Source: an uncultured Actinomycetes bacterium
GTDB taxonomy: Bacteria > Actinomycetota > Acidimicrobiia > Spongiisociales > DATADW01
Length of the DNA stretch: 64,000 bases
Assembly (NCBI GenBank): GCA_963824995.1
Contig: CAWGRK010000016.1
Span: forward strand, 1-64,000
Direction: 5' to 3'
Shown: positions 26,174 through 63,145 of the stretch, piece after piece
Layout: the number at the start of each line of letters is the position of its first letter
Numbering within the stretch: the stretch's first letter is position 1
Translations under genes and position numbers: made by a program
Notes under the pieces: model-generated
Databases searched by the model: none
The model's input: only the letters and a program-made list of their open reading frames with translations
What the model was told of the DNA's origin: nothing

Positions 26174-26209
26174 GGGTGAGAGGGTAGCCGCGGGCGTTAG
26201 CGTGCTCTC

Positions 26210-26774: not shown

Positions 26775-26795
26775 CCCGGGCGGGCTGGCTCATGG

Positions 26796-28728: not shown

Positions 28729-28789
28729 GGATCCGACCTGGGAAGCCGAGCGATTCTAGGGATGGCCCCCCTATGGGTCGTGGACCCGC

Positions 28790-31539: not shown

Positions 31540-31543
31540 GAGA

Positions 31544-31730: not shown

Positions 31731-31734
31731 GGCT

Positions 31735-32849: not shown

Positions 32850-32859
32850 CGCAGAACCG

Positions 32860-33706: not shown

Positions 33707-34714
33707 TTGTTCCCCCAGGATCCCCGCCGACGCAGGAAGCGCCGCCGGTACCTGGTTCCCCTCATCGTCACAGCACTGCTTCTGATCGCCTGGGGAGCGA
33801 CCTCTCTTCGCAGTGACGACAGGACCAGGGTCGGCTTCTTCGACGCGCTCGTCCAGCACGCAGAGACTCAGTCGGCGACCGCCGTCGGCTTCCAACAACT
33901 CCTCGCCACGTTGAGCAGCGTCGATCGAGACCTGGTATCCGACCGGATGGCCGAACTGCGCGAGGAACTGACCGCATCCACCGAGCAACTCGACCAGGAA
34001 GAGGTCCCAGAAGGTGCCGAGGCCGCCAGCGCCCTGTTCGACCTTGCCCTCGAGGAGTGGGACGCTGGGCTGGCCGCCTTCGACACTTCGCTGCTCGCCG
34101 TGGCCGACGACCCGGAGTCGGAGGAGGCGGTCGAGGGACTGGCCGGCTCCATCCAGCGGATCGCAGTGGGGGATCTGCTCTACCGCCGTTTCCTCGAGGA
34201 ATCCGAGGCCCTGCGCTCCAACCTCGATGTGGCCGTCGCCTCCACATATCCCGAAGTCAGCTTCATTCCCGAACGATTCGCAGGAACGAGCGCCGCAGCC
34301 AGCATCGCCGGGACGGTTCGAGCCAATCCCTCGCTCGACCTCAACCCCGACATCGAGATCAACCAGGTCAGCTTCGAGCCGGAAGCGGTGCTCAACACCG
34401 AGGATCAACTGGTCGTGCCGGCAACCAACGAAGTGAATGTCAGCGTGGTCGTCGCCAACGTGGGAAACGTGCCCCGACGCGGTGGCCAGTTGCGGGTCCG
34501 ACTGGAGAACGCTGACGGCGACGTGGCCGAGACCATGTCGGCTTCCTATCCGGAGTTGGACGCCCGTGCAAGCACGAGCGTCACCTTCGACCCGGTGCCC
34601 GTCGAACCGGGGTTCGACTATGTGTTGGTGATAACGCTCGTAGCCGGTGATGGCGAACAGAACCTCGAGAACAACGTGGAAGAGGTTCCGTTCTCGGTCA
34701 ACGCTGCGGGCTGA
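33707..34714 (+). CDS. Membrane-anchored hypothetical protein with helical region and C-terminal CARDB/Ig-like domain
   Basis: Basic stretch plus TM, acidic helical region, 'VSVVVANVGN...GEQNLENN'; start TTG 33707 because the ORF upstream overlaps the tRNA. Confidence 0.7.
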   Translation: MFPQDPRRRRKRRRYLVPLIVTALLLIAWGATSLRSDDRTRVGFFDALVQHAETQSATAVGFQQLLATLSSVDRDLVSDRMAELREELTASTEQLDQEEVPEGAEAASALFDLALEEWDAGLAAFDTSLLAVADDPESEEAVEGLAGSIQRIAVGDLLYRRFLEESEALRSNLDVAVASTYPEVSFIPERFAGTSAAASIAGTVRANPSLDLNPDIEINQVSFEPEAVLNTEDQLVVPATNEVNVSVVVANVGNVPRRGGQLRVRLENADGDVAETMSASYPELDARASTSVTFDPVPVEPGFDYVLVITLVAGDGEQNLENNVEEVPFSVNAAG

Positions 34715-34742
34715 GACCGCTCCGCCGGTACGATCGCAACCC

Positions 34743-36005
34743 ATGCTCGATCCGGCTTTGCTGCGTGAAGACCCAGAGCGGGTCCGTCGCTCCCTGGAGC
34801 GCCGCGGAATGCAGGTTGACATCGACGGCCTGGCCGAACTCGACAGCCTCCGTCGCCAGGCGCGTCATGCGGCCGAGGAGGTGCGTGCCGAGCAACGGGC
34901 CCTGGGCAAGACGATCGCCCAACTCGACGGCACCGAGAAGGAGGCGGCGATCTCCACTGCCGCCAGGCTGGCTGACTCCTATCAGACGCTCTCCGCCCGC
35001 GCCGAGGAACTCGACGCCGGCTTCCTCGATGGTTGGGCAGATCTTCCCAACCTGGTGGACGACACCGCTGCCGATGGGCTGACCGAGGACGACTCTGTCG
35101 AGATCCGTCGCGTGGGAGATCCGCCGCGCTTCGATGGTGACCCCGCCGACCACCAGGCACTGGGGGAGGCCCTCGGCGTCATCGACATGGAACGCGCTTC
35201 CAAGGTCTCGGGTGCCCGATTTGCCTACCTGGCGGGCGACGCCGTGCTGCTCGAGATGGCGCTCCTGCGCTGGGCGATCGACCGCGTCGCCCCTCACGGG
35301 TTCACACCTGTCATGCCGCCGGTGCTGGTCAGGGAGAATGCTCTGTACGGGACCGGGTTCTTCCCCGAGGCGCGAGACCAGGTGTATGCGTTCGAAGCCG
35401 ACGGCCTTTTCCTAGTGGGGACGTCGGAGGTGTCGCTCGCAGCGCGCCACACCGACGAGATCCTCGATCTCTCCAACGGCCCGATCCGATATGCCGGGAT
35501 CTCCACCTGCTTCCGACGCGAGGCCGGCACATACGGGAAGGACACCCGCGGGGTCTTCCGGGTTCACCAGTTCGACAAGGTGGAGATGTTCAGCTTCACC
35601 CGCCCCGAGGAATCGGTGGCCGAGCACGAGTTGCTGCTCACCGTCGAGGAGGAGATATTCACCGCCCTCGGGATCCCGTATCGCGTTGTCAACACCGCCG
35701 CCGGCGACCTGGGCCCGTCAGCCGCCAAGAAGTACGACATCGAAGCCTGGTTCCCCTCGCAGCAGCGTTACCGCGAGCTGACCTCGTGCTCGAACACCAC
35801 CGACTACCAGGCACGACGGCTACGAATACGCCATCGCGGCGAAGCGGGGACCGAATTGGTGCACACCCTCAACGGGACGGCGATGGCGGTCCCGAGGACG
35901 GTGGCGGCGATCATGGAGAACTTCCAGCAACCCGACGGCTCCGTCTTGATTCCCGACCCCCTCCACCCCCACACCGGCTTCGACCGAATGGTTCGTCGAG
36001 GCTGA
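34743..36005 (+). CDS. serS: Serine--tRNA ligase
   Basis: N-terminal coiled coil, GTSEV, CFRREAG, HQFDKVE, ELTSCSN, HTLNGT. Confidence 0.97.
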   Translation: MLDPALLREDPERVRRSLERRGMQVDIDGLAELDSLRRQARHAAEEVRAEQRALGKTIAQLDGTEKEAAISTAARLADSYQTLSARAEELDAGFLDGWADLPNLVDDTAADGLTEDDSVEIRRVGDPPRFDGDPADHQALGEALGVIDMERASKVSGARFAYLAGDAVLLEMALLRWAIDRVAPHGFTPVMPPVLVRENALYGTGFFPEARDQVYAFEADGLFLVGTSEVSLAARHTDEILDLSNGPIRYAGISTCFRREAGTYGKDTRGVFRVHQFDKVEMFSFTRPEESVAEHELLLTVEEEIFTALGIPYRVVNTAAGDLGPSAAKKYDIEAWFPSQQRYRELTSCSNTTDYQARRLRIRHRGEAGTELVHTLNGTAMAVPRTVAAIMENFQQPDGSVLIPDPLHPHTGFDRMVRRG

Positions 36006-36012: not shown

Positions 36013-36214
36013 CGGCGTTCTGTGGGCCCGAACCGCGCCTCTGCAACACCTCGAACCCAGGGTTGCTCCGGACCGCTCGACCCGGCGTTCTGTGGGCCCG
36101 AACCGCGCCTCTGCAACACCTCGAACCCAGGGTTGCTCCGCACCGTTCGACCCGGCGTTCTGTGGGCCGAACCGCGCCTCTGCAACACCTCGAACCCAGG
36201 GTTCGCTCCGGACC
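36013..36214. repeat. 70-bp tandem repeat, about 2.9 near-identical copies
   Basis: Unit CGGCGTTCTGTGGGCCCGAACCGCGCCTCTGCAACACCTCGAACCCAGGGTTGCTCCG... starts at 36013, 36083 and 36153. Confidence 0.92.
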
Positions 36215-36238
36215 GCCGTCCGCCGTCCGAAAGACAAG

Positions 36239-36510
36239 GACCGTGCACCCCTCCATCGAGTACCTGTCCGGTGGTGCTACTCGTCGATCGGCTCCGGCCA
36301 GGCGCTCCCACGGCACCCGGGGCGGACCACTTAGGGCTGCTTCCTTCCGGACCTGACCCGGTTCGCGGCGCCCCGCCGCGGAGGACCCAACCTTCAACAC
36401 CGATCTTCGAGCGCGTGCCGCCGGGTGGTGGCCCTCAGGAGGGGGACTCAGCCCCGCATCGAGAGGGTTTCGGGTACAGGGCACCCCTAACGCCCCGCCT
36501 AGCACGGCCC
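36239..36510 (-). ncRNA. ffs: Large (Alu-domain-containing, Bacillus scRNA-type) SRP RNA
   Basis: GGTCAGGTCCGGAAGGAAGCAGCC helix-8 motif; 5' GCCGTGCTAGGCGGGG..GGTGCCCCTGTACC pairs with 3' GGTGCACGGT; about 270 nt. Confidence 0.92.
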
Positions 36511-36529
36511 TTGGGCGCGATGGTAGCGG

Positions 36530-36622
36530 TGGCGGAGGGAGCGGGATTTGAACCCGCGAGGCGGGATTACCGCCTACACGCTTTCCAGGCGTGCGCACTA
36601 GGCCGGACTATGCGATCCCTCC
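36530..36622 (-). tRNA. tRNA-Ser (GGA), CCA encoded
   Basis: GGAGGGA acceptor, CACGC-CTGGAAA-GCGTG anticodon arm, long variable arm, GGTTCAAATCC. Confidence 0.96.
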
Positions 36623-36639
36623 AGACCCTTAGTGTATCG

Positions 36640-37122
36640 GTGGTGGCTGACCCGCCCTTCGAGAAGGCGATGCGGCTCGCCCTCGAGCAGGCGGCGCTGG
36701 CTGCCGGTGAGGGAGAGGTCCCTGTGGGTGCGGTCCTCCTCGATTCCGACGGCAATCCGGTGGACGCCGATCACAACCGGCCCCGCCAGTTGAACGATCC
36801 AACCGCCCACGCCGAGATGCTCCTGCTGTCGAGGGTGTCCCGACACCGTTCCCACGGCCGTCTCGAGGGTCACACGCTGGTGGCGACCCTGGAGCCGTGC
36901 GCCATGTGCGCCGGGGCCGCGGTGCTCGCCCGGCTGGATCGGATCGTTTACGGAACGCCCGACCTGAAGGCCGGCGCATGTTGGAGCCTTTACAACATCC
37001 CCCAGGACCGCCGGCTCAACCATCACATCGACCTGGTGGCGGGGGTGCTCGAAGTTGAGTGCGCCGAGCTCCTTTCCGGGTTCTTCGCCGAACGGCGCGC
37101 CGATCAGGGCACAGCCAGCTGA
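36640..37122 (+). CDS. tadA: tRNA adenosine(34) deaminase
   Basis: GEVPVGAV, DPTAHAE, TLEPCAMCAGA, DLKAGA. Confidence 0.93.
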   Translation: MVADPPFEKAMRLALEQAALAAGEGEVPVGAVLLDSDGNPVDADHNRPRQLNDPTAHAEMLLLSRVSRHRSHGRLEGHTLVATLEPCAMCAGAAVLARLDRIVYGTPDLKAGACWSLYNIPQDRRLNHHIDLVAGVLEVECAELLSGFFAERRADQGTAS

Positions 37123-47498: not shown

Positions 47499-47589
47499 GG
47501 AGGGATCGCATAGTCCGGCCTAGTGCGCGGCACTCGAAATGCCGTAGGGGGTTACCACCCTCTCGTGGGTTCGAATCCCACTCCCTCCG
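47499..47589 (+). tRNA. tRNA-Ser (CGA)
   Basis: GGAGGGA acceptor, CGGCA-CTCGAAA-TGCCG arm, long variable arm; TAGAAT -10 at 47483-47488. Confidence 0.96.
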
Positions 47590-47592
47590 CGA

Positions 47593-47745: not shown

Positions 47746-47832
47746 GGAGGGATGGCCGAGCGGTCGAAGGCGGCAGTCTTGAAAACTGCCGGGCCCATTC
47801 GGGTCCCGTGGGTTCGAATCCCACTCCCTCCG
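47746..47832 (+). tRNA. tRNA-Ser (TGA)
   Basis: GGAGGGA acceptor, GCAGT-CTTGAAA-ACTGC arm, GGTTCGAATCC. Confidence 0.96.
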
Positions 47833-47899
47833 CTCCGCAGACGGAAGACGGAAGATCGGAAGCCAGAAGAGTCGCGACGCTCCTCGGGGAGATTGACCG

Positions 47900-49228
47900 A
47901 TGGTGACGACTCGTTACGCCCGGAGTGGTGATGTCAACATCGCCTACCAAGTGGTGGGCGCGGGGGAGCGCGACCTCGTCTATGTGCCGGGGTGGGTATC
48001 CAACATCGAGGTGATGTGGGAAGACCCTGGGTTGGCGCGGTTCCTCAATCGGCTGGCTTCCTTCTCGCGGCTGATCACCTTCGACAAGCGCGGTACCGGG
48101 CTGTCCGATTCCGTCCCCGTCGAGGACCTGCCGACGCTCGAAGTCCGGATGGACGACCTGCGGGCGGTGATGGACGCCGTCGGCTCGGAGCGGGCAACGC
48201 TCTTCGGACACTCCGAAGGCGGCAATATGTGCATCCTCTTTGCTGCAACGTACCCAGAGCGGTGCGACTCGCTGATCCTGACTGGGAGCTACGCCGCCAG
48301 GGTCCGCCGCGACGACTATCCCTGGGCACCGACCACCGAGGACCGATTGGCCGAGATCGATGCAGTCGAACGGAAGTGGGGCGATCCCGAGATCTTCAGC
48401 TACCTAGTGCCCAGCAGGGCGGACGACCAGGTTTTCCAGGCGTGGCTGCAGAGATATCAGCGACTCTCGGCGAGCCCGCGTGCTGCGGCGGCGCTGTTGC
48501 GGATGAACACGATGATCGACGTGACCGCGGTGCTCCCGTCGATATCGGTTCCGACCCTGCTGCTCTACCGAGTGGACGACATTGACGTCAAAATCGAGGA
48601 AGGCCGCTATCTGGCATCGAGGATCCCCGATGCGAGGCTTGTCGAACTCCCCGGCGCCGATCACGGCTTCTGGGGGGGCGATACGGAAGCCATCATCGAG
48701 GAGATCGAGGAGTTCATCACCGGCCACCGCGACGTGGCTGGTCCCGAGAGGGTGCTGGCGACGGTCCTCTTCACCGACATCGTCGATTCGACCAAGCAGG
48801 CGGTATCGCTCGGCGACTCGGCGTGGCGGGATCTGCTTGACCGGCACCATGCGACCGTTCGAGTCGAGCTGCAGCGGTGGCGGGGCAGGGAGATAGCCAC
48901 CGCAGGCGACGGGTTCTTCGCAACGTTCGACGGGCCGGCCCGAGCCATCCGGTGCGCCCAAGCCGTCTCCTACGGCGTCCGCTCGCTGGGTATCCGGGTC
49001 CGCTGCGGTCTGCACACCGGTGAGGTGGAGACCAGAGGGGATGATGTCTCTGGCCTGGCTGTCCATATCGGTGCCCGGGTAGCCGGCCTCGCCGGCGCCG
49101 GTGAGGTGCTCGTATCTAGGACGGTGAAAGACCTGGTCGCCGGTGCTGGGTTCGAGTTCCACGATCGCGGCAGCCACGAGTTGAAGGGAGTCCCCGATCG
49201 TTGGGAGGTATACGAGGTGGCGCACTAG
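47900..49228 (+). CDS. Alpha/beta-hydrolase plus class III adenylate/guanylate cyclase fusion (LipJ-like)
   Basis: FDKRGTGLSD, GHSEGG; LFTDIVDST, AGDGF, GLHTGEVE, AVHIGARVA. Confidence 0.92.
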   Translation: MVTTRYARSGDVNIAYQVVGAGERDLVYVPGWVSNIEVMWEDPGLARFLNRLASFSRLITFDKRGTGLSDSVPVEDLPTLEVRMDDLRAVMDAVGSERATLFGHSEGGNMCILFAATYPERCDSLILTGSYAARVRRDDYPWAPTTEDRLAEIDAVERKWGDPEIFSYLVPSRADDQVFQAWLQRYQRLSASPRAAAALLRMNTMIDVTAVLPSISVPTLLLYRVDDIDVKIEEGRYLASRIPDARLVELPGADHGFWGGDTEAIIEEIEEFITGHRDVAGPERVLATVLFTDIVDSTKQAVSLGDSAWRDLLDRHHATVRVELQRWRGREIATAGDGFFATFDGPARAIRCAQAVSYGVRSLGIRVRCGLHTGEVETRGDDVSGLAVHIGARVAGLAGAGEVLVSRTVKDLVAGAGFEFHDRGSHELKGVPDRWEVYEVAH

Positions 49229-49314: not shown

Positions 49315-49406
<92 letters not shown>

Positions 49407-52561: not shown

Positions 52562-53302
52562 ATGATCGCCGCGTCGAACGATGCCCCTCCGATCCTCGGA
52601 GCCCAGACATTCTCACCTCGGCTGGTCTACCGGACGATCAAGCGGGCCACCGATGTTCTGGGAGCACTCATCCTCGGCATTGCACTGATCCCGGTACTGG
52701 TGACCATCGCCATCGCGGTCCGACTCGATAGCCCCGGGCCTGCCATCTACCGACAGGAGAGGATCCGCGGTCGAAGGGTGCGAGTCGGTGCCGGATGGGA
52801 GTGGAGACTCGAGCCCTTCATTTTGCACAAGTTCCGGACGATGAAAGAGGACGCAGATTCGAAACTGCACGAGGAGTACATGGCCGCCTACATCGACGGA
52901 GATGAGGATCGGATGGCCTTCCTCCAGGGTGACGGGTCCGAGCCCGGCTCCTACAAACTCACATGCGATCCACGGGTCACCCGCATCGGTTCGCTGCTCC
53001 GCCGCCTGAGCCTCGACGAGCTTCCCCAGTTGTGGAACGTCCTGAGGGGAGAGATGAGCCTTGTCGGACCCCGTCCACCTTTGCGGTACGAGGTCGACCT
53101 CTACGAGGACCGCCACCTCAGGCGTATGACCGGAACTCCAGGACTGACCGGATGGTGGCAGGTCCGAGGACGGTGCGAGACCGACTTCGAGGAGATGATC
53201 AACCTCGATCTGGAGTACATCGATCGTCAATCAGTCTGGTTCGACCTGAAAGTGCTGGCACTGACGCTGCCGGCGGTCGTCTCCCGGAGAGGAGCTGGAT
53301 AG
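52562..53302 (+). CDS. Priming phosphoglycosyltransferase (Bac_transf sugar transferase)
   Basis: [55 protein letters not shown]. Confidence 0.95.
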
Positions 53303-54436
53303 GTGGACCGCTTGAAGGTAGGAGCGATCGGTTGCGGGTACTGGGGACCCAACCTGATCAGGAACATCGTCGAGATTCCGTCGGCCTCGCTGGAGGCGGT
53401 GGCCGACCTGGACCAGACCCGGCTGGACCACATCCAATCTCGGTATCCATCGATCCGACTTGCGACCACTGACTACACGAAGCTCTTCGACCTCGACCTA
53501 GACGCCGTCGTCGTGAGCACTCCGCCAGCCACCCACTTTGAATTGGTGCGTGCCTGCCTCGAACAAGGTCTGCACGTTCTCGTGGAGAAGCCGCTCACGA
53601 CAAGCAGCTTGCATGCTCGTTCGTTAGTGAAGTTGGCCGAAGAGCGTGACCTGATTCTGATGGTCGGCCACACATTTGAATACAACCCCGCGGTCCACAT
53701 GTTGCGCGACATGATCGCCGATGGCGAGTTGGGTGAGATTCACTACGTTGACGCCATTCGTGTCGGCCTTGGACTCTTCCAGGACAAGTTGAATGTGTTG
53801 TGGGATCTGGCACCCCACGACATCTCGATCCTCTTGCACATTCTCGGTGAGGCGCCGATCACGGTAAGTACGACCGCTGCTGCATGTGTTCAAGAGTCTG
53901 TCGAAGATGTGGCATACATGACTCTCTCCTACCGCAGCGGCATCATCGCCCATACCCGGATGAGTTGGCTCGATCCATGCAAGACGCGTCGCATAACCGT
54001 CGTTGGCAGCAAGAAGATGGTCGTGTACGACGACGTTGAGAGTTTCGAGAAGATCAAGGTCTACGAAAAGAGCGTTGACGCGATCCGCCACACCGATACG
54101 TTCGGGGAGTTCCACTTCGACTACCACCACGGCAATGTCGTGAGTCCGTTTATCCGCTTTGAAGAACCCCTTCGGCTCGAGTGCACCCATTTCTTAGAGT
54201 GCATCCAAGACGGTGCGCTGCCGTTGACCGACGGGCGGAACGGCCTGCGTGTTGTCGAGATCATCGAAGCTGCGCAGCGATCGCTCATCAGCGGAGGTGT
54301 GCCGCTCCCCATAATTTCGGCGGTGCCTTCTACGAGCAATGGGCACCAAGTGGTCAATGGCCGCCACCGGGGCTTGCGCCCGGTCGCCAGTCAACCGGAA
54401 CTGGTCGCTCAAATGGTCGCAGGGGGCTTGGATTGA
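53303..54436 (+). CDS. Gfo/Idh/MocA oxidoreductase (NDP-sugar 3-dehydrogenase-like, WbpB/GnnA type)
   Basis: IGCGYWGPNL, VLVEKP, VGHTFEYNP, WDLAPHD, SWLDP.K.R. Confidence 0.9.
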   Translation: MDRLKVGAIGCGYWGPNLIRNIVEIPSASLEAVADLDQTRLDHIQSRYPSIRLATTDYTKLFDLDLDAVVVSTPPATHFELVRACLEQGLHVLVEKPLTTSSLHARSLVKLAEERDLILMVGHTFEYNPAVHMLRDMIADGELGEIHYVDAIRVGLGLFQDKLNVLWDLAPHDISILLHILGEAPITVSTTAAACVQESVEDVAYMTLSYRSGIIAHTRMSWLDPCKTRRITVVGSKKMVVYDDVESFEKIKVYEKSVDAIRHTDTFGEFHFDYHHGNVVSPFIRFEEPLRLECTHFLECIQDGALPLTDGRNGLRVVEIIEAAQRSLISGGVPLPIISAVPSTSNGHQVVNGRHRGLRPVASQPELVAQMVAGGLD

Positions 54437-55665
54437 CTCGAGCACGTGTTGAGAACAACCCGGTCTTCCGTCATGTGGCCGGAGAGCCAAACGGCACGGG
54501 ACCATTACCGGAGAAGATGCAGCGAGCCCGCCAACGCGCAGCGAAGAACCCGCGTTGGTCGATCGCGGTCCCCTTTGTCGATCTACATGCCGACTACCTA
54601 CCCATCAAGGAGCAGGTGGATCGAGCCTTTCGAGAGGTGCTCGAGCGCGCCGACTTCATCATGGGCCGCGAGGTAGCAGAGTTCGAATCGTCTTTCGCCG
54701 CGTACTGCGGAGTCGACCACGGCGTCGGGGTCGATTCTGGTTTCTCGGCGATCGAGCTGATTCTCCGGGCCTACGAAATCGGACCCGGGGACGAGGTAAT
54801 CACTGCGGCTAACACCTTCATCGCCACCGTCACCGCCATCGACATCACCGGCGCTCGTCCCGTGCTTGTCGACATCGACCCCGACTCCTACAACCTGGAC
54901 CCGGAACGCGTGGCTGAGGCGATCACGCCGGCGACCCGGGCCATCATTGCAGTTCACCTGTACGGCCATCCCGCCGACATGGACGGATTGCGGGCCGTCG
55001 CCGACGAATTCGACCTGCTGCTCGTCGAGGATGCCTGCCAAGCCCACGGCGCCCGCTACCGGGGACGTAGGACCGGCGGGTTGGGTGATGCGGCGGCCTT
55101 CAGCTTTTACCCGTCCAAGAACCTCGGGGCGTTTGGCGACGGCGGTTTGGTGGCCACCAACGATGTCCGCCTGGCCGATCGGGTGCGAATGTTGCGCAAC
55201 CTTGGCGCGTCCGAGAAGTACCACCACGATATAAAGGGCTTCAACCGGAGGCTCGACACCCTCCATGCGGCTGTCTTGCAGGCCAAGCTCCCTCACTTGG
55301 ACGACCGCAATGAGTCACGATCGAACGCTGCGGCCATCTATCAGGATCAACTCGACGGGCTTCCCATAACCACTCCGATCGAAGCGGCGCACGTGGAGCA
55401 CGTCTATCACCTGTACGTCGTGCAAGTGATAGACCGTAGCGCCCTGCAGAAATACCTGATTGACCTAGGGATAGCAACCGGCATCCACTATCCGATTCCG
55501 GTTCACCTTCAGACGGCTTACCGCTTTCTCGGATACGAGCCGGGGAGTTTCCCGATAACGGAGTCTGCGGCCTCTCGCATCTTGTCGCTACCCATGTACC
55601 CAGGTGTGACAGCCGACGCTCTGGCGCACACAACGGAGTCGATTCGCTCCTTTTACACAGAATAG
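54433..55665 (+). CDS. DegT/DnrJ/EryC1/StrS PLP aminotransferase (NDP-3-keto-sugar aminotransferase-like); start uncertain (54433 TTG or 54517 ATG)
   Basis: VPFVDL, VHLYGHPADM, EDACQAHGA, FSFYPSKNLGAFGDGG, HVYHLYV, IHYP.P.H, SLPMYP. Confidence 0.93.
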   Translation: MTRARVENNPVFRHVAGEPNGTGPLPEKMQRARQRAAKNPRWSIAVPFVDLHADYLPIKEQVDRAFREVLERADFIMGREVAEFESSFAAYCGVDHGVGVDSGFSAIELILRAYEIGPGDEVITAANTFIATVTAIDITGARPVLVDIDPDSYNLDPERVAEAITPATRAIIAVHLYGHPADMDGLRAVADEFDLLLVEDACQAHGARYRGRRTGGLGDAAAFSFYPSKNLGAFGDGGLVATNDVRLADRVRMLRNLGASEKYHHDIKGFNRRLDTLHAAVLQAKLPHLDDRNESRSNAAAIYQDQLDGLPITTPIEAAHVEHVYHLYVVQVIDRSALQKYLIDLGIATGIHYPIPVHLQTAYRFLGYEPGSFPITESAASRILSLPMYPGVTADALAHTTESIRSFYTE

Positions 55666-55674: not shown

Positions 55675-57705
55675 GTGGAACTGAAACAGTATTTCAAAGC
55701 AGTGAAGCGTTGGTGGTACGTGGCACTGGTGGCCATGGCGGTGACGTCATTCGCCACGGTCGTATTCGTCACCGAACAGCCGGACGTGTACGAGTCGACA
55801 GGTACCTATGTTGTCCGGCCTCGGGCGGTGAGTCCCGATGAGGCCATTGACGCAGTGGACACGCTCAACCGAGGCACCGAGATCATCAGCTCGACCTTCG
55901 CCCGCATCGCGCAGAGCGACGTCATAAGGGATCTTGCCGAGGAGAACGTCCGCCCAGTTTTCCGTGGGGAGGGACTGGAGGTTGCCGGGACGGTCGTCAC
56001 CGGTACCAACATCATCGAGATCACTGTTCAGGGACCCAATCCTGAAACGGTCTACCAGTTGGCCGTGGCCATCGGCGACGAGGTGGTGCGGTACGTAAGT
56101 GAACTCGACGACGCATTTGTTCTAGCTCCCCTGGACGCGCCGGCCATGCCCGAAGAGCCCGTTGGACCGAACCGGCCGCTGACCGTGGCAACCGGGGTTG
56201 CGCTTGGTGCGATCCTCGGCATCGTGCTGGCCATTGTCGCCCAGTACCTGAGCGAGTCTCGCGTGAAACCTGATCGGGAAGATGCCGAACCGGAACACGA
56301 GATAGCGCTCAGCACGCCTTCCCCAACTCCCGTACTGCCCCGGACTCCCGTACTGCCCCAGATGGGCGACGAAAGAGCGTTCCGCTACCGGCTCTCTGAG
56401 GAGATGGCCCGCGCCGACGGTGCCCCATTCAGTCTCGGCATCCTGCGCCTCGGGGAGTCAGATGGGGCCGGGCGAGAGTTGGGCTCCGGACAAGTCGTCA
56501 AACGGTTGGCTCGGGAGAACGCCAGCGTGCTCCGGCAGGTCGACGTGGTGGCAGATCTGGGTGATGGGTCCTATGTAGTGCTCTTCCCCGGCACACCTGT
56601 CGAGCAGGCCGCCGACCTGATGAATGCGTGGGAGGTCGCAATCCGGTCGTCCTCACGCGCAGTCGGAGCTCACTCCTCGACGGCGGTGGGCGTGTATGGC
56701 TACGGCTTCGATGACCCAGCAGCGGGGCAACGCCCACCGGCGCTGTCACCACTGGTGTGGAGGTTGGAGAGTCTCGTCGATGCGTGGAGTGGCAGCCCAC
56801 CCCGACACGAAGCGGGTAACGGCCACGCCAATACGCTGCCCCCCCGTCCCCCGACGGCGAGCGTTTCGCAACGGAAGGCAGGCGGCGCCTATCGAAACAT
56901 GACCTCTGTTGCTGGAACCGAGCCGCCAGTGAGACCCGTCGCCGAGCCACCGCGTCGCCGGTCCGTTCTCGGGGGATCCGAGATCGAAGAGATCCTCCAT
57001 CGGACGACGGTTGCCGTCATGACTCTGGGCGAGCGCGGCACCATGGCACATCCGGAACCAGCCGCTTCGCCATTCGTGCCGTTGGTCCGGGTCGACAGTT
57101 ACCGCTCGCTCGGCGAGATGGTGCTCGTCCGGATGGCGGCCGATCTCGACAGACCGGCAGAGGCAGCGCAGTTGGCCGCCGAGATCATGGCGGCATTGGG
57201 AGCGGAAGACGATGACGCTGCAGCAGCGATCGACACGTGGGCGCGCAACCGGTTCTTCGCGAGGCACGTCGCCGAGACCGATCGCAATCCCGAGATATGG
57301 CACCTGCGCAGCAAAGAGGGGTTGCTTCACGCTTTCGTATACGGCCCGCTCTGCACCCGCAGCGCCATACTCCAGTTCCGCTCCGGTTTGATCCAAGCCG
57401 TCGTCGACGGGCTCAAGCTCCAGATGCGGGATGCGATCGACGGCGACAGGCTGGATGACGTAGCAGTCATCGACGAACGCCTCCGCGAAATGCGCACCTT
57501 CGACATCACTGTCGGTTGGCTGTATGAGGGGACCATGCCAGAAGCGCGCCTTCGTTATCCATGGCGGGATGACCGAGGACAGCCTCAGGGATGGGCTCCG
57601 GACTTCGCTGAGGGCATCCGGCCCAACCTGACCCCGTTGCAGCGGCTCGGTCTGCTGGCTGCGCCCGTCCTGCGTTGGGAGGAGCTCGAGGCGCTTTCGG
57701 GCTGA
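55675..57705 (+). CDS. Polysaccharide chain-length regulator (Wzz/CapA-like) fused to a degenerate GGDEF domain and a PglX/BrxX C-terminal-like domain
   Basis: MELKQYF..KRWW plus two TM helices and 'LDAPAMPEEPVGP' (PCP); AFRYRLSEEMAR..RQVDVVADLGDGSYVVLFP (GGDEF fold); FFARHV..NPEIWHL and QPQGWAPDFAEGIRPNLTPL. Confidence 0.8.
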   Translation: MELKQYFKAVKRWWYVALVAMAVTSFATVVFVTEQPDVYESTGTYVVRPRAVSPDEAIDAVDTLNRGTEIISSTFARIAQSDVIRDLAEENVRPVFRGEGLEVAGTVVTGTNIIEITVQGPNPETVYQLAVAIGDEVVRYVSELDDAFVLAPLDAPAMPEEPVGPNRPLTVATGVALGAILGIVLAIVAQYLSESRVKPDREDAEPEHEIALSTPSPTPVLPRTPVLPQMGDERAFRYRLSEEMARADGAPFSLGILRLGESDGAGRELGSGQVVKRLARENASVLRQVDVVADLGDGSYVVLFPGTPVEQAADLMNAWEVAIRSSSRAVGAHSSTAVGVYGYGFDDPAAGQRPPALSPLVWRLESLVDAWSGSPPRHEAGNGHANTLPPRPPTASVSQRKAGGAYRNMTSVAGTEPPVRPVAEPPRRRSVLGGSEIEEILHRTTVAVMTLGERGTMAHPEPAASPFVPLVRVDSYRSLGEMVLVRMAADLDRPAEAAQLAAEIMAALGAEDDDAAAAIDTWARNRFFARHVAETDRNPEIWHLRSKEGLLHAFVYGPLCTRSAILQFRSGLIQAVVDGLKLQMRDAIDGDRLDDVAVIDERLREMRTFDITVGWLYEGTMPEARLRYPWRDDRGQPQGWAPDFAEGIRPNLTPLQRLGLLAAPVLRWEELEALSG

Positions 57706-57734
57706 CGGCACCTTCCCGTCGAGGGGGAACCTTC

Positions 57735-58820
57735 TTGGAACAGAAAACGACAATTGCACCTGGTGATCGTCATGCCGCCGCGGAGCGACGGGGCTTGGCG
57801 ACATCTGGCGCGCCCGCGAGGCCTGGTCCGATCCACATAGGCGGCCTCGATCGTTCCGGCAAGACAACTATGCGCGGGTTCCTCGCGTCACATCCCAATA
57901 TCGCGATCCCCGAGGTCGGCTCGAACATGTGGACGTACTTCTATGGACAGTACGGAGACCTGCGACGGCCCGAGAACCTCGAGAGCTGCCTCCAGGCGAT
58001 GCTTCGCTACAAGCACGTGCGGTTCCTCGATCCTGACCCCGATCGGATCCGGCGTGAGTTCAGAGAGGGCAACCAGACCTACGCAAGCCTCTTCGACTTG
58101 TTCCTGATGCATTACGCCGAACGCCGGGGCAAGCCGAGGTGGGGCGCCCAGACCGGGCTCATCGAAAGCTACGCGGATCATCTCTTTTCCTCGTATCCGG
58201 GGGTGAAGGTCATCCATATGGTGCGCGACCCCAGGGACCGCTACCAGGCGTCGTTGGAGAAGTGGCCAGACGGAAGAGGCAGGGCCGGTGGAGCCGTCGC
58301 CAGGTGGCGGTATTCGCTCGCTCTCGCCGAGCGCAACAGCAGGCGGTATCCCGATGACTACTTGGTGGTGAGATTCGAGAGCATGGTCGAGGATCCCGAG
58401 GCGGTGGTGCGCTCAGTGTGCGCCTTCATTGGCGAGGACTTCCAGCCCGCGATGATGGACATGGGCGATGCCCCGAAGCATCGCGCTCTCCTCGCAGAGG
58501 GATCGGATCCCGAGGCGCCCGACCGGCTGCTGTCGGACCGTCACGTCGGTCGCTATCGCTCGAGCGTGTCGCCCGCCGAGCTCGCCTTCATCCAACTCCA
58601 TGCGGGGCGCCTGATGAAGACGTACGGCTATGCCCCTGAGGAGTTGAAGCTGCCTGCTGGTGATTGGGCACGCTTCGCGGTCGTTGACTGGCCCAGTCAG
58701 ATGGCCCGGATGTTCACCTGGCGCGCCGTCGAGGAGGTCAACCAGAGATTTCCCGCCTTCTTCGGCAGAACCCCGGGGAAGCGCATGATCATCGACGAGC
58801 CGGTTGGGGTGGCGTTGTGA
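57735..58820 (+). CDS. Sulfotransferase family protein
   Basis: IGGLDRSGKTT..LASHP, KPRWG, IHMVRDPRDRYQAS, VRFESMVEDPE; GAGGGGG RBS before TTG 57735. Confidence 0.85.
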   Translation: MEQKTTIAPGDRHAAAERRGLATSGAPARPGPIHIGGLDRSGKTTMRGFLASHPNIAIPEVGSNMWTYFYGQYGDLRRPENLESCLQAMLRYKHVRFLDPDPDRIRREFREGNQTYASLFDLFLMHYAERRGKPRWGAQTGLIESYADHLFSSYPGVKVIHMVRDPRDRYQASLEKWPDGRGRAGGAVARWRYSLALAERNSRRYPDDYLVVRFESMVEDPEAVVRSVCAFIGEDFQPAMMDMGDAPKHRALLAEGSDPEAPDRLLSDRHVGRYRSSVSPAELAFIQLHAGRLMKTYGYAPEELKLPAGDWARFAVVDWPSQMARMFTWRAVEEVNQRFPAFFGRTPGKRMIIDEPVGVAL

Positions 58821-59707
58821 ACGGCCGCCGAGGGATCTCCGATGAGACTGCGATGAGCCCGATCTTCATCGGAGGTCTTTCCCACAGTGGGAAGACTCCG
58901 CTCGGAACGGCTCTGTCGTCTCATCCCCGGATCGTCGTCACCCGCAAGACCTACTTGTGGACTCGCTACTTCAACCGCTTCGGCGACTTGGGGGTGCCCG
59001 CAAACCTCGATCGTTGTCTCGCCGCTCTCATGGTCGACTCGAATGTGACCGCGCTTCGGCCGGATTGGGAGGATGTGCGGGAAGCGCTCGGGAAGGAACC
59101 CCGGACGTATGGCGGGCTGTTCGGTCTCCTCCACCAGCAACACGCCGAGCGGTTGGGTAAGTCCCGGTGGGGTGATCAGCTCGGCTTGGTCGAGCAATTC
59201 GCCCCGGCCATCTTCGACTCCTTTCCGAGGGCCCGCTTCGTCCACATGGTGCGGGACCCGCGTGACCGAGGAACGGGCGACCGACGGGGAAAGCTCGGCT
59301 GGGAGACGGCGCGCTGGGTGCACTCAGCCGACCTCGCCGCCGAGCAACGCCGTCGCTATCCGGACCGCTATCTGGTCCTTTGCTATGAAGATCTGGTAGG
59401 GGCGCCGGCATCGACATTGGGCCTCGTGATGGATTTCCTCGACGAGGAGGTGCGCCCGGGGATGATGGACGCTCTGCAGCACTCTCTCGGCTCTGGCGCC
59501 GATCGGGCGAAGGTTGTTGCAGCTCGCACGGCAAATGACTCCGCTGCCGGTTTTCTGGAATACCAGGCCCGCGCCCAGTTCAAGGCGCTGGGATACCAGA
59601 CGGCTGCCACGACTGACCGGATTCCATTGCGGCCGGTCGAGCGGGCGGGGATGGCGGCGTGGCGCCTCATCCATCGGGGTTCCCTCACGAGGCGGGCCCA
59701 GCTGTGA
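58817..59707 (+). CDS. Sulfotransferase family protein (divergent)
   Basis: IFIGGLSHSGKT..LSSHP, RWGD, FVHMVRDPRDR, YEDLV..P. Confidence 0.82.
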   Translation: MNGRRGISDETAMSPIFIGGLSHSGKTPLGTALSSHPRIVVTRKTYLWTRYFNRFGDLGVPANLDRCLAALMVDSNVTALRPDWEDVREALGKEPRTYGGLFGLLHQQHAERLGKSRWGDQLGLVEQFAPAIFDSFPRARFVHMVRDPRDRGTGDRRGKLGWETARWVHSADLAAEQRRRYPDRYLVLCYEDLVGAPASTLGLVMDFLDEEVRPGMMDALQHSLGSGADRAKVVAARTANDSAAGFLEYQARAQFKALGYQTAATTDRIPLRPVERAGMAAWRLIHRGSLTRRAQL

Positions 59708-60684
59708 ACGCTCGAGGTCCGGTGTTCGTCGCAGGATTGGAGCGGAGCGGCACCAGCCTGATGTTCGCCTTGCTCGCATCTCACCCCAATCTGGCGATGA
59801 CCCGGCGCACAAACCTCTGGACCTATTTCTTCGATCGATACGGCGACCTGGCCGAACCCGCCAACTTGGACCAGTGCCTGCAGACCATGTCCCGCTACAA
59901 GCGGCTAGTCGTCCTCCAGCCAGATTGGGCGCGGCTCCGTGAGGATTTCCAAAGAGGCGAACCGAGCTACGGGCGGCTCTTCGATCTGCTGGAGAGGCAA
60001 TACGCCGATCGGCTGGGGAAGCCGCGATGGGGCGACAAGTCGCTCAACACCGAGCGGTACGCCGGTCCGATCGTTGAGTCCTACCCCGAAGCGCGCATCC
60101 TTCACATGGTGCGCGACCCCCGCGACCGGTTTGCTTCAGTCATGGCTCGCTGGAAGGTGCGCCGTGGCGGCGCCGGCGCCGGTACCGCCGAGTGGCTGTC
60201 CTCTGTGAAGCTTGCTGAGCGGAACCTGAGGTACCACTCCGGTCAGTACCTGATCGTGCGGTACGAGGACCTCGCTTCAGCTCCAGAGTCCACGCTACGA
60301 GAGGTCTGCGCATTCATAGGCGAGGACTACGCACCTCAGATGATCGGTATGGCGGGTGCCGAGGCCTTCCGCGACCAGGGAAGCAACAGCTCGTACGGGG
60401 CTCGGGAAGTTGGCGTCATCTCGACCGAGTCGATCGGGCGGTTCGCCCAGGTCCTGTCGCCTCGTCAGATCGCCTTCATCCAAACGGTTTCCCGCAAACG
60501 GATGACCTCGCTGGGCTACGACCCGCAGCCGATCGCTCTCGGGCTCGAGGAGAGGGCCCGCCTCCTCGCGGTCGACATGCCGCTCGAGCTCGGCCGGTTG
60601 ATGGCGTGGAACGCCCGCCACGAGGTTCAGAACAGGGCCGGGCGCACCGTGCCCGGTTACAGATTGGTGGAGGGGGGGGCATGA
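59704..60684 (+). CDS. Sulfotransferase family protein
   Basis: VFVAGLERSGTSLM..LASHP, RWGDKS, HMVRDPRDRFAS, RYEDL..PE. Confidence 0.9.
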   Translation: MNARGPVFVAGLERSGTSLMFALLASHPNLAMTRRTNLWTYFFDRYGDLAEPANLDQCLQTMSRYKRLVVLQPDWARLREDFQRGEPSYGRLFDLLERQYADRLGKPRWGDKSLNTERYAGPIVESYPEARILHMVRDPRDRFASVMARWKVRRGGAGAGTAEWLSSVKLAERNLRYHSGQYLIVRYEDLASAPESTLREVCAFIGEDYAPQMIGMAGAEAFRDQGSNSSYGAREVGVISTESIGRFAQVLSPRQIAFIQTVSRKRMTSLGYDPQPIALGLEERARLLAVDMPLELGRLMAWNARHEVQNRAGRTVPGYRLVEGGA

Positions 60685-62174
60685 CCGCCCGGCACATCAA
60701 GGACACCAGGCTGGTCGCCGGCGGGCGGGGCTGGCGGGCGCTGCGCACGGGTGCGCTGGTGACGTCGGCGGCGGTCGGCGGGGCGGCCGTGGCGTACCTG
60801 CTGGTCGGGGGGCAGCTGGTCATGGCCTTGGCACTGTTGCTGGCGTTTCCCGCTTTCCTCGTGTTGCAGCGATACCCGATTGCAGTGATCTCCGTCTGGC
60901 TGCTGGCCGCTCCGTTCCTCACCTCCAACGAGCAGGGGACCTCCGGCCGAACCGTCTTCTGGCTGGTCCATCGGGCATTGCCCGTTGTGGCAGTGCTTGC
61001 CGTGGTGATCACCAGGATGGTGGGTATCCGACGCCGTCCGCTTCCCCGACTGGGCTGGCCCGAGCTGGCCATGGCGGCGTATGTCATCTCCACCGTGTTG
61101 TCGGTGGCCTTCACCTCTCCCGAGGTCGAGGCGACGCTCTACCTGCTCTACGACCGGGTATTCGTCCCGATGTGCCTCTACTTGCTGATTCGCCTCCTCG
61201 AGCCGGGGGAGCGCCAACTGAGACTGCTGCTCCCTGTCCTCGGATTCGTGCTGGTCAGCCAATCTCTGATCGGCGCCCTCTCCTGGATCTCGCCGGAACT
61301 ACTGCCGGCGGGCTGGCTGGGCCGCGAGGGAACCCGAACCGTTGGATCTCTGCAGCACCCCAATGTTTTCGGCACGACGATGCTGCTGTGCGGAGCGATG
61401 CTCCTGCACGGGGCGCTCAGCAGCCCTCCAGGCAAGCGGGCCCGACGTACCGTGCTGGTCGCTGGGTTCATCCTCGCTCTGGCCATGGTGTTCTTCACCT
61501 ACTCGCGGGCGAGCTGGCTGGCGGGAGGCGTAGTGGTGCTGGGGCTCGCCTTCGTCTACCGCCGGTTCACCGCGAAGTTCGCATTGGTGATCGGCCTCGC
61601 CTGCATCCTGCTACTGGGCTCCGGCCTCATCAGCGGCCAAGCCGAGATAGCCGCCCAGCGGTTCAATGCGGAGGAATCAGCGCTCAGTCGACTCCCGATT
61701 GCGCTTGGGTCGACCCGCATGTTCCTGGAGAAGCCCGTCGGTGGCTGGGGATACGGGAACTTCGACCGTTACAACTACCAGTTCCAGGGAGCAGTCGACG
61801 GTCTGGTGGTCCCCGATAAGGAACACCCGTCCCACAACCTCTATCTGACGATCCTCGCCGAGCAAGGAATCATCGGTCTGTTCCTGTTCCTGTTTCCTGT
61901 GCTGTGGTGGCTTGGCGTCACGAGATCCAGCCTACGGAAGTTGCCTCCGTCGGGGCTTATCAGCCGCAACCTCATACGGGTCCTCTGGCTCGGGATGGCC
62001 GCCTTCTTCATCGTCACCAACTTCTCGAACCTCCGCGTGGTGATAGGCACCGGCCTGTGGTGGATGACACTGGGCCTGATCGCCTCGGTGCTCGAGCGCT
62101 ACCGCAAGGATGAACTTCCTGGGCAGGAGGGCCAGAACTCAGTTCCGGCTGACGCTGGCCGGGTGACGCCATGA
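60681..62174 (+). CDS. O-antigen ligase/Wzy polymerase family membrane protein
   Basis: Many TM helices, RTVGSLQHPN, TYSRASW, P..GWGYGNF, HPSHNLYL..LAEQGIIG. Confidence 0.9.
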   Translation: MTARHIKDTRLVAGGRGWRALRTGALVTSAAVGGAAVAYLLVGGQLVMALALLLAFPAFLVLQRYPIAVISVWLLAAPFLTSNEQGTSGRTVFWLVHRALPVVAVLAVVITRMVGIRRRPLPRLGWPELAMAAYVISTVLSVAFTSPEVEATLYLLYDRVFVPMCLYLLIRLLEPGERQLRLLLPVLGFVLVSQSLIGALSWISPELLPAGWLGREGTRTVGSLQHPNVFGTTMLLCGAMLLHGALSSPPGKRARRTVLVAGFILALAMVFFTYSRASWLAGGVVVLGLAFVYRRFTAKFALVIGLACILLLGSGLISGQAEIAAQRFNAEESALSRLPIALGSTRMFLEKPVGGWGYGNFDRYNYQFQGAVDGLVVPDKEHPSHNLYLTILAEQGIIGLFLFLFPVLWWLGVTRSSLRKLPPSGLISRNLIRVLWLGMAAFFIVTNFSNLRVVIGTGLWWMTLGLIASVLERYRKDELPGQEGQNSVPADAGRVTP

Positions 62175-63145
62175 GCCCTGCGATCGAGCAGAAGTGGGTG
62201 TCCTGGCTCGACTCGGATGCCTGGCGCAGCTTCGGTAGGTCGAGCATCGGCGCCACCATCTTCGAAAGCCGTGTTTATCGTGCCGCAGACACGGCCCGCC
62301 GTTACGTGCGGGCCGGTCTGAGCACGCTGCGGCATCCCGACCTGTTCTCCGGGGTCGAGACCTTTTGTGCCTTCATTGGGCACGTGAAAAGCGGAGGGAC
62401 CTTGCTGGGCACGCTACTCGACGCCCACCCCCGGGCCCTCGTCGCCGATGAGGCCGACGCCTTCCGCTACGTCGCAGCCGGGTTCGGCCGCGACCAACTC
62501 TTCCACCTGCTCCTCAAGGGGTCACGCCGCGAGGCGCTGAAGGGTCGCGTGACCGCCCGCCGCCTCGGGGCCTACGACTTCGCCGTTCCTGGGCAGTGGC
62601 AGGGGCGGGCCACCCGGGCGCAGGTGATCGGCGATTCACGGGCAAGTCCAACGACGCGACTTCTGGGCCGCCGTCCAGAACTGTTGGACCGATTGCGGTC
62701 GGTCCTGGGCAGTGTCGAGGACCGCTACGTCCATGTGGTTCGCAATCCCTTCGACCCCATCAGCGCCATGGTGATGCGAGGCCGGCGGAGCATCGAGGAT
62801 GCCACCGCTGACTACGCCGCACAGTGCGCCCGTCTTCTCGACCTGCGGAGCATCCTCCCAAGCGGTCGGGTCCTCACGGTGAGGTACGAGGAATTCACCG
62901 AGCAGCCGAAGGCTGGGCTGGCTCGCGCGTGCGGGTTTCTCGGTCTCGACCCGGTGCCGGATTACTTGGATTCATGCGCCGCCATCGTGCAGCCGGGACA
63001 GCAACGGGAACGGGGTGCCGTCGACTGGACCCCGGCCGCGGTCGACGCGGTTGAGGGGCTGATCGAGACGGTGCCCTTCCTCGCCGGCTACGCCTACGAA
63101 GCGCCTGCGCCAGGAGCTAAGACCGACGACGGGAGGAGGCGGTGA
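62171..63145 (+). CDS. Sulfotransferase family protein
   Basis: FIGHVKSGGTLLGTLLDAHP..ADE, VIGD, HVVRNPFD, RYEEF..P. Confidence 0.82.
   Translation: MSPAIEQKWVSWLDSDAWRSFGRSSIGATIFESRVYRAADTARRYVRAGLSTLRHPDLFSGVETFCAFIGHVKSGGTLLGTLLDAHPRALVADEADAFRYVAAGFGRDQLFHLLLKGSRREALKGRVTARRLGAYDFAVPGQWQGRATRAQVIGDSRASPTTRLLGRRPELLDRLRSVLGSVEDRYVHVVRNPFDPISAMVMRGRRSIEDATADYAAQCARLLDLRSILPSGRVLTVRYEEFTEQPKAGLARACGFLGLDPVPDYLDSCAAIVQPGQQRERGAVDWTPAAVDAVEGLIETVPFLAGYAYEAPAPGAKTDDGRRR

Follow-up and report, generated by a model that had tools for sequence, protein, structure and literature searches.

The co-polymerase gene and its cluster

The window, by which we mean the whole 64,000 nt stretch analysed here (positions 1 to 64,000 of contig CAWGRK010000016.1, from an uncultured member of the Acidimicrobiia), includes a gene for a 676-aa protein that begins like a polysaccharide co-polymerase (PCP), i.e. 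a chain-length regulator, and ends in a domain homologous to the terminal part of the C-terminal domain (CTD) of PglX/BrxX, the methyltransferases of type I bacteriophage exclusion (BREX-1) systems. The open reading frame (ORF) begins with GTG, its stop codon lies at 57703–57705, and its G+C content at third codon positions is 0.73, matching that of the adjacent genes. The gene, its parts and the neighbouring genes are listed in Table 1. A first-pass annotation of the sequence had proposed that a PglX/BrxX-like C-terminus is joined here to a chain-length regulator, and PADLOC, phmmer, hhalign, AlphaFold2 (AF2) with Foldseek, the predicted transmembrane (TM) helices and the gene cluster agree on this point. 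The peptide strings that it quoted are all present in the translation, in which positions 57070–57690 correspond to residues 466–672.

The two TM helices found in a hydropathy scan enclose an outside loop of ~130 aa and agree with helices at residues 2–34 and 170–194 of the full-length AF2 model. A proline-rich motif, such as the stretch just before TM2, is typical of PCPs. The remainder of the protein forms a cytoplasmic extension of ~480 aa. Pfam Wzz matched with E 0.018 (15.8 bits, cut-off 25.5), Pfam GNVR with E 9.3e-4 (19.5 bits, cut-off 27.7) and NCBIfam TIGR01006 (CspC-family PCP) with E 5.8e-7 (29.2 bits, cut-off 296), the last aligning residues 16–207 with positions 24–212 of 226 and thus nearly the entire model. 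The assignment as a PCP is based on the two TM helices, these weak matches and the Wzy-type cluster in which the gene lies.

Only 9 nt separate the stop codon of the DegT-type aminotransferase gene from the GTG of the PCP gene, and genes for an initiating sugar transferase (Bac_transf) and a Wzy_C protein are on the same strand, as in a Wzy-type context. The cluster would encode a Wzx/Wzy-type pathway for a polymer that is probably sulfated. No flippase was identified within the window. A scan of 56 other window ORFs revealed no separate gene for a bacterial tyrosine kinase (BY-kinase), and the 676-aa protein itself has no CbiA, AAA_31 or BY-kinase match in Pfam or NCBIfam. Four paralogous Sulfotransfer_3 genes flank the Wzy_C gene, suggesting a heavily sulfated actinobacterial surface polysaccharide, and the first of them overlaps the end of the PCP gene by 31 nt, provided that its TTG start is real.

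Two further statements of the first-pass annotation, namely that the protein has no methyltransferase motif and that the window has no other brx/pgl gene, were upheld. In a regular-expression search the motif [NDS]PP[YFW] is absent from the ORF, the protein has no match to the Pfam methyltransferase domains Eco57I, MmeI_Mtase or N6_Mtase, and no BREX component was detected with PADLOC or Pfam among the 56 other ORFs scanned. Strong PADLOC 'PD-T4-6' matches to a PknB-like kinase in the window are generic kinase-domain matches and no evidence of defence.

Table 1. Parts of the 676-aa protein, neighbouring genes of the polysaccharide cluster and related genes at other loci
Feature	Position	Strand	Evidence
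Whole gene, PCP-like protein with PglX-CTD-like tail (676 aa)	55675..57705	+	ORF list and translation
PCP membrane module, residues 1-199	55675..56271	+	Hydropathy, Pfam, NCBIfam
TM1, residues 13-34	55711-55776	+	Hydropathy scan
TM2, residues 167-195, proline-rich stretch just before	56173-56259	+	Hydropathy scan
Degenerate GGDEF-like domain, cytoplasmic, residues ~225-345	56347..56709	+	NCBIfam, phmmer against PDB
RQVD-VVADL-GDGSY, residues 287-300, I-site-like RxxD and degenerate GG(D/E)EF position	56533..56574	+	Alignment to 6zxm_A, regular expression
Linker, proline-rich, probably disordered, residues 346-431	56710..56967	+	Model confidence and composition
PglX/BrxX-CTD-like domain, residues 432-676	56968..57702	+	PADLOC, phmmer, hhalign, AF2, Foldseek, BLASTP
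Bac_transf initiating sugar transferase	52562-53302	+	Pfam E 1.5e-55
GFO/IDH/MocA oxidoreductase	53303-54436	+	Pfam E 7.6e-23
DegT-type aminotransferase	54541-55665	+	Pfam E 7.5e-117
Sulfotransfer_3 no. 1	57675-58820	+	Pfam E 4.3e-22
Sulfotransfer_3 no. 2	58817-59707	+	Pfam E 2.7e-17
Sulfotransfer_3 no. 3	59659-60684	+	Pfam E 1.8e-29
Wzy_C polymerase/ligase-like membrane protein	60606-62174	+	Pfam E 9.5e-19
Sulfotransfer_3 no. 4	62171-63145	+	Pfam E 4.5e-14
PCP gene with PglX-like tail, locus L001 (L001-L004: ~880-940 aa)	L001:1028-3853		Pfam
PCP gene with PglX-like tail, locus L002	L002:7988-10639		Pfam
PCP gene with PglX-like tail, locus L003	L003:7847-10480		Pfam
PCP gene with PglX-like tail, locus L004	L004:549-3188		Pfam

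Homology of the C-terminal domain with PglX and BrxX

The PADLOC model PDLC02528 (PglX) matched residues 498–667 with E 5.8e-9, on positions 906–1070 of the 1125 in the profile, and two further PglX models, PDLC02534 (E 3.2e-6) and PDLC02518 (E 0.0028), also matched the tail. NCBIfam added a weak BREX-5 PglX match (E 0.0075), and there is no Pfam model that covers this region of the protein. An exhaustive phmmer search with residues 454–676 against 1.84 billion representative proteins returned 166 matches with E ≤1e-3, 73 with E ≤1e-10 and 20 with E ≤1e-30. The 500-bit cut-off of NF033452, the NCBIfam model for BREX-1 PglX, is passed by 13 of the 20 long matches tested, Eco57I/MmeI_Mtase is carried by 8 of the 29 matches scanned with Pfam, and the best bona fide BREX-1 PglX, P0034, was matched with E 1.5e-23. 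In all of the long PglX matches the aligned stretch is the extreme C-terminus. When a profile of 15 PCP-type sequences was aligned with a profile of 14 PglX C-terminal pieces using hhalign, the probability was 99.94 % (E 8e-37) over 202 columns.

The link to the solved BrxX structures needs a profile or the fold, as phmmer with the window domain alone against the PDB sequences gave only a chance-level match to rabenosyn-5 (E 0.3), and a profile search reaches BrxX/PglX with E ~1e-4. The AF2 model of residues 454–676, built from a 76-row alignment, has a mean predicted local distance difference test score (pLDDT) of 94.6 and a predicted template modelling score of 0.88. It consists of a winged-helix-like three-stranded sheet with helices (467–556), a long two-helix hairpin (562–618) and a conserved C-terminal strap (619–676), and is preceded in the protein by a leading helix (434–451). 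Foldseek comparison of this model with the PDB gave six matches with E ≤1e-3, all of them to chains of Escherichia coli BrxX or Salmonella PglX (9ewz, 9ex7, 8zek, 8c45 A and B, and 8q56; query-normalized TM-score 0.49–0.62), the next match having E 0.48. The full-length model retrieved the identical six chains with a longer alignment of 287 columns, because the confidently predicted helix at 434–451 belongs to the unit, and the BLASTP alignment with the closest ~900-aa relative (P0003, 902 aa), which spans 249 columns at 51 % identity (E 9e-78), likewise begins at residue 432. The homologous unit is therefore residues 432–676, slightly larger than first proposed, and it is a genuine ancient homologue of the terminal sub-domain of the BREX-1 PglX/BrxX CTD. 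Comparison of the domain model with the viral structures in BFVD gave no matches with E ≤1e-3, i.e. no phage-encoded look-alike there, and ESM Atlas features for the domain gave a top score of 0.78, which is under the useful range and provided no lead.

The counterpart of this unit has been described in several ways. In the available portion of PMC12839542, a three-stranded winged helix–turn–helix (wHTH) of BrxX is reported to extend the DNA interface and to precede an extension of ~130 residues that resembles a coiled coil, and the corresponding portion of PMC11341690 calls the end of PglX a region of unknown function. The parts of PMC11842806 that were accessible state that structural homologues of the BrxX CTD were not detected and call this domain specific to type I BREX. 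A literature search (supplements not included) found nothing that links PglX/BrxX to co-polymerases or describes such an architecture, in keeping with the first-pass annotation, which knew of no protein of this kind.

Related co-polymerases in the Acidimicrobiia

The fusion, read as a graft in the first-pass annotation, is no singular event; a whole family of ~900-aa PCPs is marked by this domain. Among the 150 phmmer matches listed, the N-terminal architecture is that of P0003 in 51 and that of the PglX P0034 in 40, and ~50 clusters of ~900-aa PCPs carry the PglX-CTD-like domain among these matches. In these relatives (~870–975 aa), two TM helices enclose a loop of ~250 aa, matches to BY-kinase families follow (TIGR01007, TIGR03029 and others, with E down to 1e-15, under the cut-offs), and the C-terminus has BREX PglX matches in NCBIfam that lie within the last ~150 positions of the profiles. 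A Walker A motif, GK[ST], is kept near position 380–410, in the stretch ~370–420, in only 5 of 55 relatives, and there is no C-terminal tyrosine cluster (0–1 Tyr in the last 25 residues). With the Walker A motif mostly degenerate and the tyrosine cluster missing, the ~900-aa relatives are, as judged from their sequences, fused PCP–BY pseudokinase proteins that end in a PglX-like domain. Public annotation calls them either "hypothetical protein [Acidimicrobiia bacterium]" or "Mrp family chromosome partitioning ATPase" and gives no precomputed Pfam domain, and in the ESM Atlas P0003 likewise has hypothetical proteins from actinobacteria as its neighbours, along with Wzz/CbiA proteins.

Every family member with a taxon name belongs to the Acidimicrobiia. 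A genome scan found four loci (L001–L004), all in metagenome-assembled genomes (MAGs) of Acidimicrobiia; since it used one narrow peptide pattern from a six-sequence alignment, four loci is a lower bound and the restriction to this class is provisional. In all four, the PCP gene lies directly between Polysacc_synt_2 (CapD-like) and Polysacc_deac_1 genes, forming a conserved three-gene core, and glycosyltransferase, acetyltransferase and DegT genes are nearby. Pfam identified no BREX genes at these loci. Two proteins that match half of the domain, P0032 (389 aa) and P0050 (836 aa), share an odd Gly/Arg-rich stretch at the point where the rest of the PglX-like domain would be expected, and resemble PCP-type genes that were frameshifted in metagenome assembly.

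Phylogeny of the domain and origin of the window variant

An un-rooted maximum-likelihood tree was built from 88 domain sequences of known architecture, 34 fragments being left out. The 54 PCP-side rows, including the window protein (P0001) and its 670-aa relative P0002 (94 % identical), are separated from the 34 PglX rows by one branch, supported at 100 % by both ultrafast bootstrap and SH-aLRT, and P0001 and P0002 together are the sister of P0003 (100/98). A quick tree that included the fragments has the same split (SH-aLRT 98). We considered whether a third architecture was hidden among the 34 fragments and rejected this, as the 18 fragments on the PglX side can all be aligned over their length with the C-terminal half of a PglX protein of ≥1000 aa. 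Being nested within the PCP clade, the window domain is not a recent capture from pglX; it was inherited within the PCP lineage, where it is old and vertically maintained, and is no recent pglX remnant. The first-pass annotation also specified a direction, from defence protein to co-polymerase, which the un-rooted tree does not settle. The PglX carriers range from low-GC to high-GC amino-acid compositions and the PCP carriers checked are all high-GC, and this carrier composition mildly favours co-option from BREX into an ancestor of the Acidimicrobiia.

The N-terminal 430 residues of the window protein share no BLAST similarity with the ~900-aa family beyond TM1. The protein is a domain-shuffled variant in which the PCP module has a short loop and a GGDEF-like domain takes the place of the pseudokinase. 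A search for other proteins combining Wzz-type, GGDEF-like and PglX-like parts had been suggested in the first-pass annotation, and one, P0002, was found, encoded on another contig (163 kb) and with the same uninterrupted architecture end to end; homologue searches with the whole protein and with residues 196–360, which were word-indexed and length-limited, found no further members. Between P0001 and P0002, the CTD is the best conserved part (97.6 % identity), the linker is 96.5 % identical, and an indel of 6 aa falls at residues 222–227.

Residues conserved and lost

The residues of the 54 PCP-side and 34 PglX rows were compared. Conserved in both groups are G466, P469, L470, W522, F527, F528, H531, P539, W542, H543, S546, G549, V555, F609, L613, P642, G647, N651, P654, Q656, G659, L661 and V665 (window protein numbering), which form the helix–wing core and the terminal strap. 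Three features are conserved in the PglX rows alone, namely a D(82 %)-x-D(91 %)-G-I motif whose spacing agrees with that of the metal ligands D997, D999 and I1001 in BrxX, a tyrosine (94 %) in the column that holds Y1113 of BrxX, and F-K-x-R-P-I, corresponding to Y1075-K1076-K1077-R1078-P1079-I1080 of BrxX. In the PCP rows the acidic pair is not conserved, V (50 %) or L occupies the tyrosine column and the loop reads T-D-x-E-P-E. The window protein has A463, S465 and L572 at the metal-ligand columns and T-D-R-N-P-E in the loop. Of the BrxX metal site D997, D999, D1012 and Y1113, the comparison covered D997, D999 and Y1113. BrxX numbering was counted from the start of the profile–PDB alignment and reproduces K1048, K1076, K1077 and Y1113 as they are given in the accessible text of PMC11842806, where D997, D999, I1001 and Y1113 are named as metal ligands and the CTD mutations K1076E/K1077E and K719E are reported to abolish defence. 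Both the window protein and P0003 have an acidic end, with an isoelectric point (pI) of 4.9 over the last 212 aa. Nucleic-acid binding has likely been lost in the window protein; for the family as a whole this is not proven.

The GGDEF-like region

Between the membrane module and the linker, the window protein has NCBIfam matches to SiaD (E 4.6e-5) and DgcR (E 2.4e-4), both under their cut-offs, and to TIGR00254 GGDEF (E 0.0042, 16.8 bits, cut-off 37.4). All six phmmer matches in the PDB with E ≤0.15 are of the GGDEF type, the best being 6zxm_A (E 4.5e-4). In the alignment with the latter, RQVD-VVADL-GDGSY pairs with RKSD-IISRF-GGEEF, placing GDGSY (residues 296–300) at the GGEEF position, such that the GG(D/E)EF active-site motif is lost. 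An RxxD sequence at the spacing of an I-site, five residues before the GGDEF position, is found by regular expression both here (RQVD, 287–290) and in P0002 (RPAD). The linker that follows lies largely within a stretch, residues 325–417, where pLDDT is <50 in the full-length model.

Function of the PglX-like tail

The reading that we favour, with a probability of about 50 %, is that the protein is the PCP of a Wzx/Wzy-type pathway and that its PglX-like tail serves as a cytoplasmic docking or assembly module of a co-polymerase that works independently of phosphorylation. The gene product would be the co-polymerase for a probably sulfated surface polysaccharide in a high-GC actinobacterium, one of Acidimicrobiia type. 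The PCP-type domain keeps the structural core without the metal-binding residues or the basic DNA-contact loop of PglX and, because these residues and the loop have been lost, the tail most likely neither reads DNA nor senses phage and is more likely to be a module for protein–protein docking or assembly. It would replace the tyrosine-kinase rings or pseudokinase scaffolds of other PCP-2 proteins and so set the assembly state or the partners of the co-polymerase. A precedent is the PCP-2 system EpsV/EcpK of Myxococcus xanthus, in which the available part of PMC12004946 presents a BY pseudokinase as a phosphorylation-independent scaffold of the PCP-2. Complex prediction with two copies of residues 454–676 gave a score of 0.00 (mark 0.42), which speaks neither for nor against self-association. 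More speculatively, the degenerate GGDEF-like domain with its RxxD may make control of the co-polymerase responsive to cyclic di-GMP (c-di-GMP).

A number of observations weigh against this reading. Every PCP and GGDEF profile match of the window protein is under its curated cut-off, and Pfam GGDEF is not reported at E ≤1. The GGDEF-like region has a pLDDT of ~55–68 in the full-length model, and Foldseek gave no GGDEF fold match. It is also the fastest-evolving part of the protein (56272–56709, residues 200–345), with 85.6 % identity between P0001 and P0002 compared to 96.5–97.6 % elsewhere, and this low conservation weakens the idea of a c-di-GMP receptor. The neighbours of the gene in the window differ from the CapD and deacetylase neighbours of the ~900-aa family, so there is no evident conserved partner encoded next to it. 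Function is deduced here from conserved and lost residues, the binding partner and oligomeric state being predictions, and the columns of D997 and D999 were mapped by motif spacing in the PglX rows, not by direct alignment with E. coli BrxX. The window protein retains one basic residue in the loop, R537. In four of the seven PCP-type members checked (P0004, P0008, P0020 and P0023) the pI of the domain is 8.1–10.4, hence some members may bind nucleic acids. As regards the GGDEF part of the first-pass annotation, then, weak and degenerate similarity in NCBIfam and to PDB sequences remains, and a recognized family match does not. That the domain adds c-di-GMP control in the manner of PelD-type receptors may be the case, with the odds tilted against it.

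The basic domains of those four members also bear on a second explanation, in which the tail would retain winged-helix nucleic-acid binding and tether DNA, RNA or a nucleotide-like ligand at the membrane machine. The three-stranded winged-helix-like unit in the fold would suit this, given that the wHTH of BrxX extends the DNA interface according to the accessible part of PMC12839542, and the strictly conserved polar residues H531, H543, S546, N651 and Q656 could make a ligand site. However, the loop that contacts the DNA backbone in BrxX is acidic or neutral in the PCP copies (T-D-x-E across the 54 rows), the window domain has the low pI given above, and DNA binding has no obvious role in a co-polymerase. 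We consider this explanation unlikely.

Polysaccharides on the cell surface often serve phages as receptors or act as shields against them. The tail could be imagined as a defence module that detects phage or foreign DNA and alters surface-polysaccharide synthesis via the co-polymerase, and a link of this type between phage sensing and polymer synthesis had been raised in the first-pass annotation. The only carriers of the domain other than PCPs are BREX-1 PglX methyltransferases, in which this region makes contact with DNA and with Ocr, a DNA mimic from phage, as far as the available parts of PMC11341690 and PMC11842806 report. Yet neither BREX nor other recognizable defence genes were found among the 56 other window ORFs scanned or at the four related loci, the PCP copies form their own deep clade (100/100), and they have neither the metal-site residues nor the K-K-R loop, the latter being required for BrxX defence in the accessible text of PMC11842806. 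The family is found in polysaccharide clusters of housekeeping appearance with conserved gene order. Beyond common ancestry, nothing speaks for the link to phage sensing, and this role for the tail is very improbable. That the gene is an artefact, whether misassembled or fused in frame by chance with a neighbouring pglX remnant, as the first-pass annotation had cautioned, is scarcely credible, for though the junction (residues 346–431) is of low complexity and proline-rich, P0002 on its separate contig has the same uninterrupted architecture and a near-identical linker, the domain shares 51 % identity with its counterpart in P0003 and is nested in the PCP and not the PglX clade, and the GC3 of the ORF is like that of its neighbours.

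Other features of the window

The remainder of the window is ordinary actinobacterial chromosome, with a PknB–FtsW–PP2C–FHA cluster, a seryl-tRNA synthetase gene and ABC transporters. The first of these (26539–33510, minus strand) comprises a PknB-like PASTA kinase, FtsW/RodA, a PP2C phosphatase and two FHA proteins, has CrgA nearby (25931–26440), and is a conserved actinobacterial cell-division and signalling cluster. Four tRNA-Ser genes lie within 13 kb (36530–36622, 47499–47590, 47746–47833 and 49315–49406), have four different anticodons (gga, cga, tga and gct) and adjoin the seryl-tRNA synthetase gene (34647–36005). A 366-aa ORF at 36022–37122 (plus strand) has a cytidine/tRNA deaminase domain at residues 214–359. 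Its first ~600 nt overlap a signal recognition particle RNA gene (36241–36507) and a tRNA-Ser gene (36530–36622), both on the opposite (minus) strand, and the real start of the deaminase gene is therefore probably much later. At 47900–49228 (plus strand), an alpha/beta-hydrolase domain is fused to a class III adenylate/guanylate cyclase domain in a 442-aa protein. In 14058–17094 (plus strand), a BTAD and AAA_16 ORF (14058–15683) and a TPR ORF (15478–17094) are in different frames and overlap by ~200 nt; the pair look like one large SARP/LuxR-type regulator, with either a frameshift or an over-long second ORF.

Comparison with known systems and implications

The closest structural counterpart is the CTD of BrxX/PglX (9EWZ, 9EX7, 8ZEK, 8C45 and 8Q56), with which the window protein shares both the fold and sequence homology over ~200–245 residues, including the features W...FF..H, P..WH..S and P....G...N..P.Q..G.L. 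It differs from BrxX/PglX in having no methyltransferase, target recognition or N-terminal domain and no BREX operon, and its domain belongs to a separate clade, is carried on a membrane protein and does not conserve DxD...Y or K-K-R. In overall plan, the window protein resembles the Gram-positive PCP-2b proteins (CapA/CpsC, TIGR01006), which also have two TM helices and a short extracytoplasmic loop, but it falls far under the cut-off of that family and has its ~480-aa extension where they have a short cytoplasmic tail. In the Wzx/Wzy PCP-2 system EpsV/EcpK of M. xanthus, the partner domain has lost kinase residues and a protein-contact role has been proposed for it, as set out in the available text of PMC12004946. 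The BY-kinase-like domain of the ~900-aa relatives is similar in that it is mostly without GK[ST], whereas it is fused, not separate, and is followed by the PglX-CTD-like domain. Compared with these relatives in turn, the window protein has no kinase-like domain and an outer loop of ~130 rather than ~250 aa.

Degenerate-GGDEF receptors for c-di-GMP, such as PelD, PssE and YdaK, switch on exopolysaccharide synthesis. Like them, the window protein is membrane-anchored, GGDEF-like and encoded in a polysaccharide cluster, and its GDGSY is degenerate while RxxD is kept. Unlike them, it carries the GGDEF-like domain on a PCP and not on a synthase partner; the match is weak and c-di-GMP binding is putative.

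In a bolder interpretation, the terminal sub-domain of PglX/BrxX would be no DNA-reading part but a portable module for docking or switching, by which a sensor is coupled to a machine of several proteins. We regard this as a long shot. Were it true, restriction in BREX would be licensed through contacts with BrxC, BrxB or PglZ, and the same module would gate assembly of the co-polymerase in Acidimicrobiia. In its boldest version, a cue derived from infection or from a second messenger would remodel the surface polysaccharide, as phage receptor or shield, on demand. With the PCP family, nature would then have provided a 'separation-of-function' version of the BREX domain, which could be used to find the binding partner of the domain.

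Annotation of defence systems calls for care, as partial PglX matches from PADLOC or NCBIfam in Actinomycetota may be co-polymerases. For PglX itself, membrane co-polymerases are a second home of long standing for its terminal sub-domain, and this provides a comparative handle on its function, the fold core and terminal strap being common to both homes and the metal site and basic loop specific to BREX. For the Acidimicrobiia, the finding would define an unannotated co-polymerase family that is independent of phosphorylation and bears a new output domain in the cytoplasm, and the GGDEF-like variant in the window suggests that regulation of chain length may be under second-messenger control.

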